From positions 15,525 through 79,524 of the forward strand of contig JAZODF010000003.1 in the NCBI GenBank assembly GCA_045596865.1: a stretch of DNA of 64,000 nt, in the 5' to 3' direction. The notes beneath the pieces are model-generated. The model was given only the letters and a program-made list of their open reading frames with translations, ran no database searches and had not been told where the DNA came from. The DNA comes from Eubacteriales bacterium. Its GTDB lineage: Bacteria > Bacillota > Clostridia > Oscillospirales > CAG-272. Below, in pieces: positions 2,527-52,961 of this stretch. The position numbers were made by a program, and so were the translations under genes. Positions within the stretch are counted from its first letter, which is position 1; every line of letters starts with the position of its first letter.

Positions 2527-5154
2527 ATGAAAAAGAGAATCATCTGTCTATTGCTTCTCGTGGCGATGTGTGCAAGCTGTGCCGTCGTTTTCACGGGCTG
2601 CAGGGGCAAAAACGGCGGAGATAAGACGAATCCCGACGCGCTCGTTATCATGACCGAGCAGCTCGACGGTCTGTTCAACCCCTTCTTCTCCACCTCCGCT
2701 ACCGACGGCACCATCGTCTCGATGACGCAGATCGGTATGCTCTCCTCCAAGTGCATCTACGACGCTAAGGGCAACGTAACCTCCGTCGAGGTCGCATTTG
2801 GCGATGACGAGGCGGTAGTAACCAAGGACTACCAGGTAACGCAGAATTCCGACGGCGATAACGTATATACCTTCGTTATCAAGAACGGCATCCTCTTCTC
2901 CGACGGTCACCCCCTGACCATCGAGGACGTGCTCTTCAACCTCTACCTCTATCTCGACCCCGTTTACACGGGCTCGGCAACCATCTACTCGACCGCCATC
3001 AAGGGCCTGAACGCGTACAGAAACCAGGACCCCGACGCGACCGAGGAGGATAACGACGACACCACCTCCGAGCAGGCGGCACAGAACGCATCCATGCGTA
3101 TTCTCGAGCTCGTTCAGCTTTACGAGACCGCCGCAGAGCAGAACGACGGCTCCTTCTACATCACCGTTGACGAGATGAAGGCGGCCATCGCAAACCACAC
3201 CCCCTCCTACGACTACATGGCGTCGATCATGACCTTCGACGAGATGGACGCGGACGGTGCCGAGGATAAGGCACGCGCACAGCTGCTTGCCGACTACGAG
3301 CAGGCGCTGAAGCTCTTTAACGAGGAGCTCTACACCGACTTTGAGAGCGCGAAGGACGCATACGTCGACGACGAGCGCTACGAGAAGTTCGAGGAGATCA
3401 AGAACGAGCTGTTCTGCTTCTTCCTTTACGAGGGCTACGTAACCATCGAGTACGAGAAGATCGCAGGCACCGACAAGGACGATAAGTCGAAGATCAAGGC
3501 CCTTCATCCCAACCTCGATATCAGCAAGTACACCACCAAGGACGCGGCGATCAAGCGCGTTTACGACGATATGATCGCAGAGTCGCTCTCCTCCATCCTC
3601 CTCTACTCTGTCAGCTCGTCCAAGCTGCTTAACGATTTCACCACGAAGGCAAAGGACGTCCTCCTCAAGAACCAGAGGGAGGGTGACGAGCTCGTCGTTC
3701 CCTCTATCTCGGGTATTCAGTCGCTCGGCCACAACGAGGCCACCAAGGGCAGCACCGTTACCGTTAACGGTAACGAGTACACCGTCGCATCCAACCACGA
3801 TGCAAACGGCGTGCCCACCGACGGCTACGACGTGTTGCAGATCACCATCGACGGCGTTGACCCCAAGGCACAGTGGAACTTTGCCTTCTCCGTCGCTCCC
3901 CAGCACTACTACGGCGAGGGTGCAAAGACCCCCGTTGACATTGAGAACAACAAGTTCGGCGTTGATTTTGGTGAGTTTGAATTTATGAAGGGCGTCGTTC
4001 AGTCCGTCCGTAACATCATGCTCCCGATGGGTGCGGGTCCCTACAAGGTAACCGACCGCGCTAACAGCGACAGCCCCGCAACCACCGACTTCTACACCTC
4101 GGGTATCGTTTACTTCAAGCGTAACGATAACTTCCACACCGTTGGCGAGAGCCTGAATAACGCGAAGATCGAGAAGGTCCGCTATCAGGTCGTTTCCGCC
4201 GCAAACTCCATCGGCGCGCTTCAGGAGGGCTCGGTGCACTACATCACCCCCCAGCTCACCAAGGAGAACGACGAGAAGCTGAAGAACATGGCCGCAAACG
4301 GCTACAACTCCATCAAGACCGACCAGCTTGGCTACGGTTACATCGGTATCAACGCAAGCCATATCCCCGACATCAATATCCGTAAGGCTATTATGTGCGC
4401 GATGAACACCTCGCTTGCCCTCGACTACTACACCCTCGATTCCGCGAGCCAGATCTACTGGCCGATGTCGAAGGTATCCTGGGCCTATCCCGACGGCTCG
4501 AGCGCGACCGACAACGGCAGGGATTACCCCCAGATCGACGAGCAGTGGAGCGAGTCCATTGCCATCGCAAATATCCAGAAGTATATGAGCCTTGCAGGCG
4601 TTTCCGCAGGTGACAGCGTGCTGTCCATCGAGTTCACCATCGCGGGCTCCAACCTTCAGGACCACCCCACCTACAAGGTATTCCGCGATGCGGCGGCGCT
4701 CCTCAACTCCCTCGGCTGGGATATCACGGTTGAGCCCGATACGCAGGCGTTGACCAAGATCAACACCGGCTCGCTCGCAGTATGGGCGGCGGCGTGGGGC
4801 TCCACCATCGACCCCGATATGTATCAGGTATATCACAAGAACTCCACCGCCACCTCGACCAAGGGCTGGGGCTACGACGAGATCAAGAGAAACGACGAGC
4901 AAAGAAAGATCCTCGACGAGCTCTCCGACCTTATCGACCAGGCGCGCGAGACCAACGATCAGGAGGTCCGCAAGGAGCTTTACGAGCTTGCAATGGGCAA
5001 GGTGCTCGACCTCGCGGTTGAGCTTCCCGTTTACCAGAGAAGCACGCTTTACGCCTACAACGCGAACGTAATCAAGGCAGAGAGCCTTCCCGAGGAGATC
5101 AACCCCTACTCCTCCCCCCTTGACAGAATCTGGGAGATCGAGTTCGCTAACTGA
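2527..5154 (+). CDS. ABC transporter substrate-binding lipoprotein, family 5 (Opp/Dpp type), unusually large (875 aa)
   Basis: Lipobox VFTGCRG. The N-terminal region has an SBP_bac_5-like motif (LDGLFNPFFSTSATDGTIVSMTQIGML). It heads an operon with two permeases and two ATPases. Confidence 0.8.
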   Translation: MKKRIICLLLLVAMCASCAVVFTGCRGKNGGDKTNPDALVIMTEQLDGLFNPFFSTSATDGTIVSMTQIGMLSSKCIYDAKGNVTSVEVAFGDDEAVVTKDYQVTQNSDGDNVYTFVIKNGILFSDGHPLTIEDVLFNLYLYLDPVYTGSATIYSTAIKGLNAYRNQDPDATEEDNDDTTSEQAAQNASMRILELVQLYETAAEQNDGSFYITVDEMKAAIANHTPSYDYMASIMTFDEMDADGAEDKARAQLLADYEQALKLFNEELYTDFESAKDAYVDDERYEKFEEIKNELFCFFLYEGYVTIEYEKIAGTDKDDKSKIKALHPNLDISKYTTKDAAIKRVYDDMIAESLSSILLYSVSSSKLLNDFTTKAKDVLLKNQREGDELVVPSISGIQSLGHNEATKGSTVTVNGNEYTVASNHDANGVPTDGYDVLQITIDGVDPKAQWNFAFSVAPQHYYGEGAKTPVDIENNKFGVDFGEFEFMKGVVQSVRNIMLPMGAGPYKVTDRANSDSPATTDFYTSGIVYFKRNDNFHTVGESLNNAKIEKVRYQVVSAANSIGALQEGSVHYITPQLTKENDEKLKNMAANGYNSIKTDQLGYGYIGINASHIPDINIRKAIMCAMNTSLALDYYTLDSASQIYWPMSKVSWAYPDGSSATDNGRDYPQIDEQWSESIAIANIQKYMSLAGVSAGDSVLSIEFTIAGSNLQDHPTYKVFRDAAALLNSLGWDITVEPDTQALTKINTGSLAVWAAAWGSTIDPDMYQVYHKNSTATSTKGWGYDEIKRNDEQRKILDELSDLIDQARETNDQEVRKELYELAMGKVLDLAVELPVYQRSTLYAYNANVIKAESLPEEINPYSSPLDRIWEIEFAN

Positions 5155-7321: not shown

Positions 7322-8680
7322 ATGAATATTATTGATAAAATCAAATCCCTCCTCGGAAAGGGCGAGGACGGCGAGATCAAGACGGGCGACAAGCCCCGTG
7401 CCTACCTCACGGGTAGGGAGATCCGCGCGATTGCAAAGGCTAATTCCAAGGTGATGATGCGCCTCGAAAAGTACAAGAAGCGCAAGGCGGACGAGTCCGA
7501 ATTCGTCACCGAGATGAAGGACGACAGGAATATCCTCGAGATCGAGGACCTGCACACCTATTTCTTCACCGATCAGGGCGTTGTCAAGGCGGTCAACGGC
7601 GTTTCCTTCAACATTCCGAAGAACGCAACCGTCGGCATCGTCGGCGAGTCGGGCTGTGGCAAGAGCGTCACGAGCATGTCGGTCATGCGCCTGCTCCAGG
7701 GACCGCAGGGCCAGATCTACTCGGGTAGCATCCGCTTCAAGGCGTACGATTACAAGCGCGAGGGCGGCAAGCTCATCCCCGTTTACGAGCTCGGCGAGGA
7801 CGGTCAGCCGATCATGGTTGACGAGTTAAACAAGAAGGGCGAGCCCACGGGCAAAAAGATCCCGAAGCAGCGCCTCGACGAAAAGGGCGCGCCGATGTTC
7901 GAGACCGAGGAAAAGGTCTACGACATTGCGAAAATGCCGCAGAGCGAGATCTACCGCATCCGCGGAAAGCAGATCGCAATGATCTTCCAGGAGCCGATGA
8001 CCTCCTTAAACCCCATTTTCACCATAGGTGAACAGCTCGACGAGGTGACCTTCATCCACACGCCCGGCGCGACCAAGGAGATGGCGAAGGAGCGCTCGAT
8101 GGAGATGCTCAACCTCGTTGGAATTGCCGCGCCCGAGCGCGTTTACAAGGCGTTCCCGCACGAGCTGTCGGGCGGAATGCGACAGAGGGTTATGATCGCG
8201 ATGGCGCTTGCCTGCGATCCCCGACTCATCATCGCGGACGAGCCGACCACCGCGCTCGACGTTACCATTCAGGCGCAGATCCTCGACCTGCTCCGTGACC
8301 TGAAGGACCGTATCGACGGCTCTATTATGCTCATCACCCACGACCTCGGCGTTATTGCGGAGATGGCGGATTTCGTCGTCGTAATGTACGCGGGCCGCGT
8401 TATCGAGATGGGCACGGTCAGGGAGATCTTCCATAACCCGATGCACCCCTACACCATCGGTCTTCAGAAGTCGAAGCCCACGATGGACTCCGACTCCGAC
8501 ACCCTCTTTAACATCCCCGGCAACGTGCCGAACCCCGTAAATATGCCCAACTACTGCTACTTCAAGGAAAGATGCTCGATGTGCACCCCGAAGTGTGGCG
8601 GCGACTACCCCTGCATGGTACAGGTAAGCCCGACGCACTACGTTTCCTGTCACCTTTATGAGGAGGAGAAAAATGGCTGA
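7322..8680 (+). CDS. ABC transporter ATP-binding protein (OppD/DppD-like) with N-terminal extension and internal insertion
   Basis: Walker A GESGCGKS, signature LSGGMRQR, Walker [13 protein letters not shown], and a C-terminal oligopeptide-ATPase Cys-rich tail. Confidence 0.85.
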
Positions 8681-10294: not shown

Positions 10295-10359
10295 TGTTGT
10301 CCGAGCGTGTTGCCCGAGCATGTTGCCCGAGAGTGTTGCCCGAGAGTGTTGCCCGTGCC
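10295..10359. repeat. 13-bp tandem repeat x5 (TGTTGCCCGAGAG)
   Basis: Units start at 10295, 10308, 10321, 10334 and 10347. They are intergenic. Confidence 0.9.
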
Positions 10360-13065: not shown

Positions 13066-13149
13066 TGCCGACGGGGCGTCAAACATTGATAAACGCACCG
13101 ATGATAATGCCGACGGGGCGTCAAATATAAATAAACACCCCAATGATCG
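13066..13149. repeat. 42-bp tandem duplication spanning the 3' end of gene 13121..13516
   Basis: TGCCGACGGGGCGTCAAA... occurs at 13066 and 13108. On the minus strand the outer copy reads GIIIGAFINV* and the genuine C-terminus reads GTIIGVFIYI*. Confidence 0.8.
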
Positions 13150-13516
13150 TGCCGAGGACGGCGGAGAGGGTGTTTGCCGCGATGCTGACGGGGAGGGTGC
13201 GGCGATATGGCTCGCGCGTGAGGATGCGGTACATCCACGCCTCGAGGAGGATGACGCCCACCTCGGCAAGAAGGAAGACGGCGAGGGTTGCCCCGACCCA
13301 CATTCGGGGTAGGAGCAGCTCTTTTACACCCTTGTAGAGGGCGGGGAGAATGAGGTTGACGATAGGATTCGTCAACAGGTTAAGGATGACCGACGGACGA
13401 CGAAAGCCACGCCAACGCGTAACAAGGGTGAGGAGCGTGCCCTCGATAAGCACGGTGATTCCGGCCATAAATAAAAGGTAGATAAGAACGACGATCCCGA
13501 AGAGAACAAACTTCAT
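13121..13516 (-). CDS. Integral membrane protein, hypothetical (131 aa)
   Basis: About 4 hydrophobic helices. Its start overlaps the stop of the upstream small ORF (ATGA). Confidence 0.5.
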   Translation of the reverse strand: MKFVLFGIVVLIYLLFMAGITVLIEGTLLTLVTRWRGFRRPSVILNLLTNPIVNLILPALYKGVKELLLPRMWVGATLAVFLLAEVGVILLEAWMYRILTREPYRRTLPVSIAANTLSAVLGTIIGVFIYI

Positions 13517-27468: not shown

Positions 27469-27903
27469 TTACATCTCGACCGTCTGTGCGTATTCCTTCA
27501 AGAAGGCGGTCAGCTCCTCGGCACAGCCGCAGTAGATGAAGTCGCACTCCTCGAGGATCTCCTTCATATTCTCGTCGTCCACGCCGTAGTAGTTCTTGTA
27601 GGCACGGAGCGCGTCCTCGAGATTTGCGGCAACCGCGCTCGGCACATTGTCGATAACCGTCCTCGCGGCATGCTCGACGTTGCCCGCGCTACGCAGGGTG
27701 AGAAAATAGTTAAGGTGTCCGTCGCGCGCGTGGCCGTCAACCTCGTGCTTGTAGAGCATAATCTCGCGGTAGGGCGAGGGGATGAGCTTTTTCTCCCACA
27801 TCTGCCAGAGCTTGTTGTACCTCTCGTCGGGGGTCAGCTCGCGTTTTTCCTGCACCGCGTCTGCCTTTTTCTTTTTAAAAATATCAAATAAACCCATTTT
27901 CAC
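27469..27903 (-). CDS. Hypothetical cytoplasmic protein (144 aa)
   Basis: Clean ORF with RBS AAGGAG and its own TTTACT-N17-TATAAT promoter. No motif recognised with confidence. Confidence 0.5.
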   Translation of the reverse strand: MKMGLFDIFKKKKADAVQEKRELTPDERYNKLWQMWEKKLIPSPYREIMLYKHEVDGHARDGHLNYFLTLRSAGNVEHAARTVIDNVPSAVAANLEDALRAYKNYYGVDDENMKEILEECDFIYCGCAEELTAFLKEYAQTVEM

Positions 27904-29036: not shown

Positions 29037-29077
29037 GGGGCGATTTGCCGAAGCAAATCGCCCTGTTTACGAGCCTT
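29026..29077. repeat. 52-bp terminator/promoter module, copy 2
   Basis: See copy 1. A degenerate third copy lies at 30061-30106. Confidence 0.9.
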
Positions 29078-29222
29078 CCCCAAGTGGGGGAAGGTGGATT
29101 TTGCGTAGCAAAAGACGGATGAGGATGCCGCGCTCCCCTGCCCTCTCCGTCGGGTTACAAAGCAGCTCTCAGACACACTCTCCCACCGGGAGAGGACGAG
29201 GTGTTCACAGCCGTTTGACACC

Positions 29223-30017
29223 CTAAAACCAATAATCATGCATTTCCGAAATTATCTTATCATCTATCTCTTCATCTATCCCGTCGGGGATTACAGCATC
29301 AATATTGCACTTGGGACACAATGCGGTGTTTCCGTTGTCTATGTATCTATCAACCTCATGACTTCCAAAGGCACTCCTACAATAAAAACAATAGCACTTG
29401 TCTGATCTTATCACCAAATCGCTGTTGTGAGAGGAATAAGCATGCAACCTTTTAAGTTGAGATTCTTTTTCATGCGAATAGGATCGATTGATCTTTCGCT
29501 TTCCCTTTCCTCGATATCCCCTTAAAACCCCAAAAACAGTGCATACGGCACATATACCAAACATGATTGCCACCTTTGCAAGATCGGCTGTTGTCCTATC
29601 GGTAGCAAATAAATAAAACAGGGGGAAGAATATTCCACAAAAAGCAAGGGGAATCAATATATTACGAACTAAAACTCTCGTATTATTTGTTTTTCGGCCC
29701 GACTTGTAGTTTTCCTTTATTTCGTCGAGAGACAACACCTTTTTCTTACACTTTTTCTGGATTATTTTAATTATGCACTGCTCGTCAAAAGAAATTCTCG
29801 CTCCGCAGCAAGGGCACGAAAAGCGATACTCATATATGTCATAATCATGCCTTGGAAACGTTCCGTATTCATGATACTGATAATAATCCAAATCGTCTTT
29901 TGTCACAATGCGGTGTGTTTTTTCCTTATTTAGCTTTGTCCCGCATTTAGAGCAATAGTGATTTTTAAAGACCATACCAAAAGGAATGGAAATATATTTA
30001 CCCTTCAAACGAATCAC
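29223..30017 (-). CDS. Zinc-ribbon membrane protein, hypothetical (264 aa)
   Basis: CSKCG...CPCCG N-terminal ribbon, 2 TM helices, then a C-terminal CYCFYC...CPKC ribbon. The gene is strongly AT-rich. Confidence 0.5.
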   Translation of the reverse strand: MIRLKGKYISIPFGMVFKNHYCSKCGTKLNKEKTHRIVTKDDLDYYQYHEYGTFPRHDYDIYEYRFSCPCCGARISFDEQCIIKIIQKKCKKKVLSLDEIKENYKSGRKTNNTRVLVRNILIPLAFCGIFFPLFYLFATDRTTADLAKVAIMFGICAVCTVFGVLRGYRGKGKRKINRSYSHEKESQLKRLHAYSSHNSDLVIRSDKCYCFYCRSAFGSHEVDRYIDNGNTALCPKCNIDAVIPDGIDEEIDDKIISEMHDYWF

Positions 30018-30044
30018 ATCCTCTGATTTCTTCTCTTTTAGTTG

Positions 30045-30073
30045 ATTATATCACACCAAAGCACAAAAGTAAA
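30045..30073 (-). promoter_or_regulatory. Promoter of 29223..30017 (module copy 3)
   Basis: On the minus strand: TTTACT-17 nt-(TGa)TATAAT. Confidence 0.55.
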
Positions 30074-30111
30074 GAGGACGGCTTGATTTCTCAAACCGCC
30101 CTGTTTTATTG

Positions 30112-30210
30112 GTGAAGGTTTTGCCTACGGCAAAAGTGAAGTTGTGCCGCAAGGCACAGTGAAGTTCGTGCTACGGCACGAGTGAAGTTGATTTTGCCCA
30201 CGGCAAAATC
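30112..30210. repeat. Hairpin array A: 4 variable stem-loops separated by constant (A)GTGAAGTT
   Basis: GTGAAG(G)TT occurs at 30112, 30136, 30159 and 30182, a period of 23-24 nt. The spacers are TTTTGCC-TAC-GGCAAAA, GTGCC-GCAA-GGCAC, CGTGC-TACG-GCACG and GATTTTGCC-CAC-GGCAAAATC. Confidence 0.9.
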
Positions 30211-30212
30211 AG

Positions 30213-30761
30213 TTATTCGGTCAGGGACCTCATAGCCTCGCCGAAGCGCTGGTAATGGACGAGCTCGCGCTGGCGGAGGAATCTTATTACGTCGTTGACG
30301 TCGGGGTCATCCGACATGCGGAGGATGTTGTCGTAGGTGACGCGCGCCTTCTGCTCCGCCGCGAGGTCCTCGTTAAGGTCGCAGAGGGCATCCCCCTTCG
30401 ACTGGATGGAGGCGCAGGTGAACGGCTCGCCCGAGGCGGCGGACGGGTAAACGCCGAAGCCGTGCTCGATATAATATTTATCAAAGCCGCCCGCGTTGAT
30501 CTCCTCGGGAGTGAGGTTGCGGGTGAGCTGATGGATTATCGCGGCAACGATCTCGCCGTGGCCGAGCTCCTCGCTTCCTATATCGGTGAGCAGGCCGATT
30601 ATCTTGCCCGAGGGCATGGTGTACCGCTGGTTAAGGTAGCGGGTCGCGGCTCCTAACTCACCGTCGGGACCGCCGAGTGCACTGATTATCTGCGAGGCTA
30701 GGCGGGCGTTTGGCGTCTTGATACGGACGGGGTACTGCAATTTCTTCTCATATATCCACAT
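30213..30761 (-). CDS. cotJC: Spore coat protein CotJC (manganese catalase family)
   Basis: MWIYEKKLQYPVRIKTPNARLA...ATRYLNQRY...EELGHGE is the canonical CotJC sequence. Confidence 0.85.
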   Translation of the reverse strand: MWIYEKKLQYPVRIKTPNARLASQIISALGGPDGELGAATRYLNQRYTMPSGKIIGLLTDIGSEELGHGEIVAAIIHQLTRNLTPEEINAGGFDKYYIEHGFGVYPSAASGEPFTCASIQSKGDALCDLNEDLAAEQKARVTYDNILRMSDDPDVNDVIRFLRQRELVHYQRFGEAMRSLTE

Positions 30762-39441: not shown

Positions 39442-39609
39442 TTTCTTCACCTCCATAAAAATTTAAAACAAAAAATCCTTTCCGTGAAAAGCATAGCTTA
39501 ACCGAGAAAGGACAACCGAAAAGGCGCACCTAGGGCACGCGATATTAAGTTATTCTCACCTCGGCAGGAAAGCAAATGCTTTTACCGGAACCTGCTGTCT
39601 TAGGATACC
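39442..39609 (-). promoter_or_regulatory. Ribosomal protein L10 leader (autoregulatory 5' UTR with attenuator)
   Basis: A ~165-nt structured leader lies between the promoter and rplJ. It ends in a hairpin UCCUUUC...GAAAGGA followed by UUUUUUGUUUU just before the RBS, as in Firmicute L10 leaders. The Rfam match was not verified. Confidence 0.5.
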
Positions 39610-39615
39610 TGTGTT

Positions 39616-39644
39616 ATTATACACACTTTGTCCCCGTTTGTCAA
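39616..39644 (-). promoter_or_regulatory. Sigma-A-type promoter of rplJL
   Basis: On the minus strand: TTGACA-17 nt-TATAAT, an exact consensus. Confidence 0.65.
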
Positions 39645-43376: not shown

Positions 43377-43540
43377 GTGAAGTTTTTGCTATGCAAAAGT
43401 GAAGTTACTCACATTGTTCGTAGTGAAGTTTTGCTGCTTCGTACGCAAAGTGAAGTTAAGCTCGCCTAAAAGCACTCTTCACTTGCACCGCACGCGGTGC
43501 GGGCTTCACTGCGTACCAACCTCACCCGCCGTAGGCGAGC
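43377..43540. repeat. Hairpin array B: 4x GTGAAGTT + hairpins, then a long stem enclosing two inverted CTTCACT copies
   Basis: GTGAAGTT occurs at 43377, 43399, 43423 and 43450. AAGCTCGCC (43458-43466) pairs with GGCGAGCTT (43532-43540) around CTTCACT-t-GCACCGC-ac-GCGGTGC-ggg-CTTCACT. Confidence 0.9.
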
Positions 43541-43580
43541 TTAGTTATCGAGCGGACGTACCCTGCCGCTCGAGATTCGG

Positions 43581-48384: not shown

Positions 48385-48566
48385 GTTCGTGCGGTGGGTA
48401 ATTTAAACCCGCTTGCCTGCGGTGCCCGTCGCCGTAGCGTGGGACACCCAATTCGTGCGGTGGGTAATTTAAACCTGCTTGCCTGCGGTGCACGTCACGG
48501 TAGCGTGGGACACCCAATTCGTGCGGGTGGTAATTTAAACCCGCTTGCGTGCGGTGCCCTTCGGTC
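48385..48566. repeat. 66-bp tandem repeat x2.75 between remA and rpoZ
   Basis: Units start at 48385, 48451 and 48517. Units 1 and 2 are about 61/66 identical. Each contains TTCGTGCGGTGGGTAATTTAAAC. Confidence 0.9.
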
Positions 48567-52363: not shown

Positions 52364-52481
52364 GATTGCGATGCGCGGGGATAGGTGCCGCGCGACGGAA
52401 TGGAGCGCGCCCCCGCTGATGTGATTGCGATACGCGGGGATAGGTGTCGCGCGACGGAATGGAGCGCGCCCCCGCTGATAG
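52364..52481. repeat. 59-bp tandem repeat x2 in the hemolysin-III 5' UTR
   Basis: Units are 52364-52422 and 52423-52481, 55/59 identical. Each folds (minus-strand RNA) as GCGGGG-CGCGC-loop-GCGCG-internal loop-CCCCGC. Confidence 0.9.
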
Positions 52482-52826: not shown

Positions 52827-52961
52827 GGGCGATTGCCCGTTATTTGCTTGTTGCCCCGCGTTGTCGCGAGCGGGCGATTGCCCGTTATTTGCTTGTTGCT
52901 CCGCGTTGTCGCGAGCGGGCGATTGCCCGATTCTTGCTTGTTACTCCGCCCTGCCCCGAGG
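52827..52961. repeat. 45-bp tandem repeat x~3 just 3' of the giant gene
   Basis: Units start at 52827, 52872 and 52917. Units 1 and 2 are 44/45 identical, and unit 3 diverges into a GC hairpin. Confidence 0.9.

Follow-up and report, generated by a model that had tools for sequence, protein, structure and literature searches.

A hairpin array downstream of cotJC is probably one copy of a dispersed, modular RNA repeat of gut Clostridia that extends the Gut-1 motif

What kind of element is a row of four different palindromes strung on one constant octamer and placed 2 nt from the stop codon of cotJC? The question arises in a 64-kb stretch of a Eubacteriales genome (64,000 nt; here the window, whose positions are used throughout). 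The original prediction, made from the letters of this stretch, described the row (here array A) as either a multivalent RNA or a REP/BIME-like element of no described family. We consider it probable that array A belongs, as one copy, to a dispersed and modular family of intergenic structured-RNA repeats in uncultured gut Clostridia, REP/BIME- or BOX-like in kind and transcribed in 3' UTRs and operon spacers.

Two arrays on one octamer

Array A and its surroundings comprise the following features, in the order of transcription.

30213-30761, minus strand: cotJC (Mn-catalase family), the last gene of cotJA-cotJB-cotJC; its stop codon, at 30213-30215, is 2 nt from array A
30112-30210, minus strand: array A, classed by sequence and by model R1 (described below) as a solo 3'-type (reverse) module
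30075-30102, minus strand: a hairpin resembling an intrinsic terminator, with CUUUACUUUU behind it, immediately past array A; every orthologous locus has this module after its array
30045-30073, minus strand: a promoter-like site (TTTACT-17-TATAAT, extended TG) serving the downstream low-GC open reading frame (ORF)

Read directly, the linkers of array A are GTGAAGGT at 30112-30119 and GTGAAGTT at 30136, 30159, and 30182. All four spacers are perfect palindromes and no two are alike (TTTTGCC-TAC-GGCAAAA, GTGCC-GCAA-GGCAC, CGTGC-TACG-GCACG, and GATTTTGCC-CAC-GGCAAAATC, the last ending at 30210). Every symmetric spacer position is a Watson-Crick pair (26/26), compared with ~28% in shuffled spacers of the same repeat family. 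The exact octamer GTGAAGTT occurs nine times in the window, always on the plus strand, where 1.2 copies are expected and 0 of 100 shuffles reach nine. Tandem Repeats Finder (TRF) gives the array a period of 23 nt with 75% matches. The invariant core of the linker is the 7-mer GTGAAGT, and the adjacent T and A usually close the neighboring hairpins. On the minus strand, the array reads as a hairpin (GAUUUUGCC-GUG-GGCAAAAUC) followed by three AACUUCAC-hairpin units and a final CCUUCAC. These readings confirm the original description of four linkers with perfect, different palindromic spacers, as well as its placement of the array between the cotJC stop codon and a terminator/promoter module. Since the terminator-like hairpin stands directly after it, array A lies inside the cotJABC 3' UTR.

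The window holds a second array of the same kind, array B, with four further copies of GTGAAGTT spaced as in array A. It occupies the spacer that separates a Zn-peptidase gene from rsmB, within the minus-strand operon def-fmt-peptidase-rsmB-rlmN. The genes that flank the two arrays are cotJ, an AraC-type regulator, the Zn-peptidase, and rsmB. The features at this site are as follows.

43548-43573, minus strand: hp0, an upstream hairpin (UCGAGCGG...CCGCUCGA) that abuts the AACUAAG start of composite B, as in canonical composites
43458-43547, minus strand: the decayed 5' half of composite B (AACUAAGCUCGCC...), with three degenerate forward linkers, GUGAGGUU, GUGAAGCC, and GUGAAGAG, and a distal UAGGCGAGCUUA
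43377-43457, minus strand: array B, (AACUUCAC-hairpin)x3 plus a final AACUUCAC, the 3' half of a composite, with hairpin "words" common to elements in other genomes

The distal UAGGCGAGCUUA of composite B is complementary to a 5' UAAGCUCGCCUA, and the two strands of this helix (P1) lie at 43543-43532 and 43468-43457. Array B is 90 to 91.5% identical to the 3' halves of elements at three loci (L029, L034, and L094) that stand beside unrelated genes in other metagenome-assembled genomes (MAGs). Judged by its sequence, array B with its flank is a decayed composite whose reverse half is intact.

To place array A, we built a covariance model (R1, from alignment A2) of 21 reverse (3') halves, all from other genomes. 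In the window, R1 reports only array B (75.3 bits, E=3e-13) and array A at 30112-30189 (69.9 bits, E=4e-12), both on the minus strand. Layout and family-specific model agree that array A belongs to the family, in which it is best classed as a solo reverse module. A separate stretch on the minus strand at 29085-29130 (TTTTGC-TAC-GCAAAA TCCAC CTTCCCC-CACTT-GGGGAAG) holds two small hairpins and a short linker just upstream of a second copy of the terminator; it is possibly a decayed array remnant, and R1 reports nothing there.

The window has other features of note. A ribosomal protein L10 leader (RF00557) at 39461-39622 on the minus strand (46.6 bits) passes its Rfam gathering threshold, as no other family in the window does. 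Five further TRF repeats, at 48386-48557 (66 nt x2.6), 52364-52479 (59 nt x2.0), 52827-52949 (45 nt x2.7), 13066-13155 (42 nt x2.1), and 10295-10355 (13 nt x4.7), are all unrelated to the GTGAAGTT arrays. Between ~10000 and 13000 the GC content is 43 to 47%, versus ~57% elsewhere, and the GC skew flips from negative to positive near 12 to 13 kb.

A dispersed family and its relation to the Gut-1 motif

We scanned one genome per species for three copies of GTGAAGTT spaced 10 to 30 nt apart. At least 119 loci were found, where by our own estimate ~2 are expected by chance, and at least 77 of the loci listed are stringent hairpin arrays, with at least 85% of positions paired and every spacer different. 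Those with listed titles come nearly all from uncultured Clostridia of animal and human guts; carriers among the listed matches are Oscillospiraceae, Acutalibacteraceae, Christensenellaceae, "Candidatus Scatosoma," and "Eubacteriales." The remaining loci among the matches listed are ordinary tandem or coding repeats from other phyla. Each array presents 3 to 7 linker sites, and the hairpins between them, 9 to 23 nt long, comprise 254 different sequences. The conserved part is the linker, and its variants have the common core RTGAAKTK/GUGAWRU. A metagenome scan with a sister linker, three copies of ATGAATTG, listed 120 loci, all of them ordinary tandem or coding repeats without hairpin arrays. 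Viral contigs scanned with four linker variants yielded a handful of true arrays (L260/L351, L288 with four, L365, and L583) and none for the GUGAAAU and CATGAATTG variants; the element is not phage specific. The four arrays of L288 (IMGVR_UViG_3300029305_011416, a 17-kb contig classed as viral), at 3845-4055 and ~7848-8060, form two face-to-face pairs (++++ central hairpins ----), a subtype distinct from the canonical 3+4 composite.

About 45 loci hold a stereotyped composite. It consists, in order, of a variable strong hairpin (hp0); AACTAAGTTTGCCC-loop-GGGCAA; (GTGAAGTT-hairpin)x3; AGTG..GGGCAAACTT; and (AACTTCAC-hairpin)x3 with a closing AACTTCAC. In short form this is a hairpin, AACTAAGTT, (GTGAAGTT-hairpin)x3, and (AACTTCAC-hairpin)x3-4, and at the RNA level a forward block, (GUGAAGUU-hairpin)x3, followed by a reverse block, (AACUUCAC-hairpin)x3-4. 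The forward and reverse linkers are exact complements carried on one strand, and the 5' AAGTTTGCCC is complementary to the distal GGGCAAACTT, which together form P1.

Among 539 clustered neighboring ORFs from 85 array-bearing loci (8-kb loci), the recurrent neighbors are a four-helix-bundle gene resembling 23S rRNA intervening-sequence genes and an RlmD-like methyltransferase gene, both of which probably reflect orthologous loci. At 5 to 7 loci, including L029 (700-1100), L025, L085, and L104, the four-helix-bundle gene begins ~20 nt past the last AACTTCAC of a composite; the RlmD-like methyltransferase is the next commonest neighbor. At L092, a canonical composite at 3654-3818 lies ~60 nt upstream of a 6S RNA gene at 3880-4071 (RF00013, 58.1 bits).

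The statement that no described family has this layout does not hold. The Gut-1 RNA motif (RF01706), which has no known function, was described from 43 representatives in human-gut sequence only, was judged to be an RNA and not cis-regulatory, and was treated as a stand-alone small RNA (Weinberg et al. 2010, Genome Biol 11:R31; PMC2864571). The consensus of its model, CAaUGAAAU-hp-GUGAAAU-hp-GUGAAAU-hp-UGAAAU, sets three variable hairpins on constant (G)UGAAAU or GUGAUAU linkers. Arrays A and B, with four linkers and three or four hairpins each, have the same layout, although their linker is GUGAAGU(U). Array A moreover is a reverse-type module with longer hairpins and an ACUUCAC strand, which the Rfam model does not cover. 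The Gut-1 model scores array A at 14.7 bits (E=3.3) and array B at 26.5 bits (E=0.004), both on the plus strand and both below the threshold of 50 bits. A first Rfam scan of three loci with the same linker gave RF01706 at 48 to 52 bits. At the gathering threshold, 3 elements of 18 same-linker loci pass (two at L029, with 52 and 51 bits, and one at L071, with 50.6 bits), and L037 (49.9 bits) and L098 (48.2 bits) fall just under it. Gut-1 is the only Rfam family reported around both arrays at E values up to 10 and on the three loci at E values up to 1. The forward-linker module of the family is what Rfam lists as Gut-1; the copies in the window differ from it in linker and score under its threshold.

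The flanks of the published Gut-1 alignment already hold a composite with another linker pair, GUGAUAUU ... GGCGAAUAU ... AUAUCAC (PMC2864571), which implies that, from lineage to lineage, both linkers and P1 change in concert. The literature that we searched yielded no later work on Gut-1 beyond the 2010 paper. As far as that literature shows, the new features are the architecture of the composites, the existence of linker dialects, the multi-copy state with its variation between strains, and the wide spread through animal-gut Clostridia. These features extend a known orphan motif and do not make a new category. Gut-1 and the window family have the gut as a common habitat, Gut-1 having come from gut metagenomes. 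Where Gut-1 has stood in Rfam since 2010 as a human-gut-only small RNA, the cotJ locus and its relatives suggest that it is half of a larger composite, present as a multi-copy, strain-variable repeat in the 3' UTRs and operons of animal-gut Clostridia.

Pairing, strand, and turnover

To assess whether the hairpins are maintained as structures, we aligned 20 composites with MAFFT (alignment A1), in which RNAalifold predicts seven local hairpins and helices between linkers. In these 20 related elements, 94.9% of stem cells are paired, compared with 76.5% after shuffling (0/500) and 33 to 54% with slid partners. Changes on both sides are found at 21 of 28 stem pairs, covariation that supports the hairpins, as membership in Gut-1 asks, and that partly reflects the swap of nonhomologous hairpin units and not only stepwise compensatory substitution. 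Across the 254 unique spacers, 87 to 94% of symmetric positions are Watson-Crick pairs, versus 28% in shuffled spacers. Hairpin pairing is thus conserved while stem sequence varies on a constant linker, as the original prediction had proposed. Covariation is uninformative for the linker-linker helices, which are invariant within the GTGAAGTT family, and for P1, which is almost invariant there; P1 draws its support from composite B in the window, L025/L085, and the GUGAUAUU family.

We then asked which strand carries the function. Two loops of array A on the plus strand are of the GNRA and UNCG types (GCAA and UACG), which had been taken as a hint toward that strand. However, the hairpins of array A are all perfectly Watson-Crick and carry no strand information themselves, and the family points the other way. 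In reverse modules, the non-Watson-Crick positions comprise 36 G.A against 3 U.C and 17 G.U against 4 A.C, and recurrent hairpin words such as UACGAGC-GAGA-GCGAGUA form tandem G.A pairs on the ACUUCAC strand. The spacers of array A, at 16 to 17 nt, match the mode of reverse modules (16 to 17 nt) and not that of forward modules (11 nt). Composites are oriented with the upstream gene in 33 cases and against it in 7 (n=40), an exception being the Scatosoma-type composites (L006), which are antisense between era and recO. Composites typically have a stop codon (plus hp0) on one side and a strong terminator, in many cases a bidirectional one, on the other, and some stand directly before a ribosome-binding site (RBS) and start codon. 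In the window, the GUGAA-reading strand of array A is antisense to both flanking genes. The weak Gut-1 matches, being on the plus strand, speak against a minus-strand reading. On balance, context, hairpin lengths, and the G.A/G.U asymmetry point to a single-stranded function, most likely as RNA, on the minus strand of the window, with ACUUCAC as the favored strand.

The arrays also differ between close relatives, which we compared through contigs encoding 100% identical CotJC or Zn-peptidase proteins. L131 and L132, whose flanks are 98.2 to 98.6% identical to the window, lack array B and have a peptidase-rsmB spacer of only 58 nt. Presence versus absence at this site is a 47-nt to 264-nt replacement, and the comparison of L131 and L132 with the window reveals no target-site duplication, ruling out a clean insertion. 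At cotJC, L120, L121, and L127 (~98% identical flanks) have the same architecture with the linker CAATTCATG, that is, CATGAATTG-linker arrays; these have 4 units, or 8 in L123. L125 (86% identical) and L077 keep the AACTTCAC linkers exactly and have different or replaced hairpins, and across the orthologous arrays of three species the linkers are exact, the hairpins changed, and the pairing kept. The hybrid arrays of L077 run from a AACTTCAC block to a CAATTCA block and then to terminator, promoter, and gene; the arrays of the window and of L120 accordingly resemble two different deletion products of such a hybrid. A single genome can hold two linker dialects, and units are rapidly gained, lost, and reshuffled between conspecific strains. 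Recombination or slippage between the identical linkers may bring about these changes.

The region downstream of cotJC (29038-30102, minus strand, in the window; also L077 and L120-L129) is a hotspot of variable genes. Its cargo in the window is a 264-aa low-GC Zn-ribbon ORF at 29223-30017 (~42% GC, no Pfam match), bracketed by two copies of the terminator-plus-promoter module (30102-30045 and 29063-~29010). In conspecific strains its place is taken by a DMP19-family protein, a 156-aa ORF, or a Zn-ribbon protein of 244 aa, or stands empty. A duplicated 3' fragment of cotJC comes after the cargo in L121 and L125, and L077 has three cargo units in 8 kb, a cassette-like tandem organization. Two genes from the hotspot, at 27469-27903 on the minus strand, a 144-aa ORF without a Pfam match begins with MKMGLFDIFKKKK..., resembling the start of the L125 DMP19-family cargo (MGLFDIFKKK...); it may be a paralogous small gene.

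Turnover of this kind raises the question of a mobile element of the MITE or REP type, in which a transposase or RAYT-like enzyme would read the octamer on double-stranded or hairpinned single-stranded DNA. Composites would then be two transposon-type ends with 3 + 4 inverted binding sites, and solo arrays would be single ends. The multi-copy state (L029a and L029b, at separate loci of a single genome, are 98% identical across their first 105 nt) fits this reading, as do the occurrence of one subtype beside different genes in different genomes, the presence or absence of arrays among conspecific strains, and the identity of forward and reverse linkers as inverted sites with 3+4 asymmetry. The replacement at rsmB without a target-site duplication does not fit. 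The original prediction had suggested looking for RAYT-like genes alongside the arrays, but no transposase- or RAYT-like family emerges as a cluster or is enriched among the 539 neighboring ORFs. A double-stranded site also leaves the co-orientation with transcription and the G.A/G.U asymmetry unexplained, and variable palindromic spacers are unexpected between transposase sites. We hold a DNA-level mobile element to be unlikely, while noting that it is compatible with an RNA reading.

Possible roles and comparison with known systems

As a structured-RNA repeat, array A would form the end of the cotJABC mRNA, given its place between the cotJC stop codon and the operon terminator, and would adopt four separate hairpins with single-stranded ACUUCAC between them. 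In composites, the forward linkers might zip together with the reverse linkers, their complements, to give a rod of four-way junctions, or this pairing might compete with the P1 helix; in the form of a switch, P1 would make hp1 and the distal GGGCAAACUU mutually exclusive. The independent hairpins, the P1 switch, and linker zippering are testable structures. Any role would be that of an RNA-level, REP/BOX-like 3'-UTR or intercistronic structure. More specific proposals, such as blocking 3' exonucleases or insulating neighboring transcription units, are tentative, and a role as stabilizer would be redundant because the terminator hairpin already protects the 3' end. Processing, or no role at all, are further possibilities.

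A more far-reaching proposal is a genome-wide addressing system. The lineage-specific linkers GUGAAGUU and their complement AACUUCAC would either zip, in cis and in trans, to give rods of four-way junctions or serve as sites for a dedicated factor that co-evolves with them, and so couple operons such as cotJ and def-fmt-rsmB; in a variant of the proposal, a mobile element of a new hairpin-array kind, spreading in an undescribed way, would have the arrays as its ends. If the addressing system were real, unrelated operons would be coupled post-transcriptionally. We regard the proposal, in either form, as quite improbable.

The array could also act as a "sponge," a multivalent RNA whose linkers bind a sequence-specific RNA-binding protein or keep it sequestered, the hairpins being mere spacers. 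Constant linkers that are predicted to be unpaired, variable hairpins between them, 3 to 7 sites per array, and linker variants with a common core are what such an RNA would have. A composite, however, carries forward and reverse-complement linkers on one strand and so presents no single RNA motif, an array of L077 contains two linker dialects, and conspecific strains differ in dialect at cotJC. In addition, the 539 neighboring ORFs include no candidate protein, and the arrays are predicted to be embedded in mRNAs and are not dedicated small-RNA genes. With this evidence a sponge is distinctly doubtful.

At least one report puts forward hairpin clusters as terminators (PMC8355165), and array A stands directly upstream of a real terminator, with one of its hairpins (30158-30143) flagged as terminator-like by a consensus scan. 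An auxiliary or backup terminator or pause module downstream of cotJC is nevertheless very unlikely: the array hairpins are followed by ACUUCAC and have no U-tracts, as an intrinsic terminator would, and array B and several composites lie within operons or, in 5' UTRs, just ahead of an RBS and start codon, positions at which termination would shut off the gene that follows. Chance, or a plain recent tandem duplication without constraint, could account for the TRF period but is refuted by the octamer excess, the complete spacer pairing, the preserved pairing of orthologous arrays in three species, and the family-wide pairing statistics.

The preferred reading, a dispersed structured-RNA repeat, can be set against known systems. 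CRISPR arrays have identical 23- to 47-nt repeats, unique nonpalindromic spacers of similar length, and usually cas genes. The present repeat is 7 to 8 nt, its spacers are palindromes of 9 to 23 nt, and no CRISPR repeat family appears in the window at Rfam gathering thresholds, so that the exclusion of CRISPR in the original prediction stands. In type III toxin-antitoxin systems, near-identical ToxI repeats of 34 to 36 nt are followed by a terminator and the gene of a cognate endoribonuclease toxin. Array A resembles them in being a tandem series of short structured RNAs with a terminator and then a gene behind it, but its units differ, and the downstream ORF is strain variable or absent (L120) and has no Pfam match; array B, which precedes rsmB, has no such gene. 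Four other candidates were rejected: integron attC-like sites (the flanking cores are direct, not inverted, and each cassette brings a promoter of its own), omega-type heptad operators (wrong period), excision footprints (the palindromes do not derive from the flanks), and mimicry of GUGAAGU, the 16S decoding-site strand (a match that the other linker variants lack).

Two repeat families also offer parallels. The pneumococcal BOX element has the form boxA-boxB(n)-boxC, with modules of 45 to 59 nt and conserved sequence. No sequence similarity links it to the arrays, and BOX does not have a constant 8-mer linker with variable hairpins. Both, however, are Firmicute intergenic repeats of modules with a variable number of internal units and complementary ends that yield a long folded RNA; BOX is transcribed with neighboring genes, as the arrays are predicted to be, and neither has a known transposase. 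The REP/BIME elements of Enterobacteria are built on a conserved imperfect palindrome of ~35 nt with a GTAG-type tag, and a RAYT (Y1 transposase) gene is often flanked by REPs. Here the conservation is reversed, the hairpin sequence being free and the linker conserved, and no GTAG palindrome is found; the units are direct and not alternating, and no RAYT is seen among the neighboring ORFs. On the side of likeness, REP/BIME elements and REPINs are, as the arrays are, extragenic, multi-copy, and palindromic, form mosaics with conserved short linkers, and occupy sites between stop codon and terminator or within operons; they appear in mRNA as hairpins, which is also predicted for the arrays. The array family is frequent in 3' UTRs and between operon genes and varies between strains, which upholds the REP/BIME-like alternative of the original prediction. 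For annotation, the family explains recurrent "structured" intergenic blocks of 80 to 200 nt in MAGs of Oscillospiraceae, Acutalibacteraceae, and Christensenellales. The comparison suggests that the orphan Gut-1 motif can be reframed as a Firmicute counterpart of REP/BIME or BOX.
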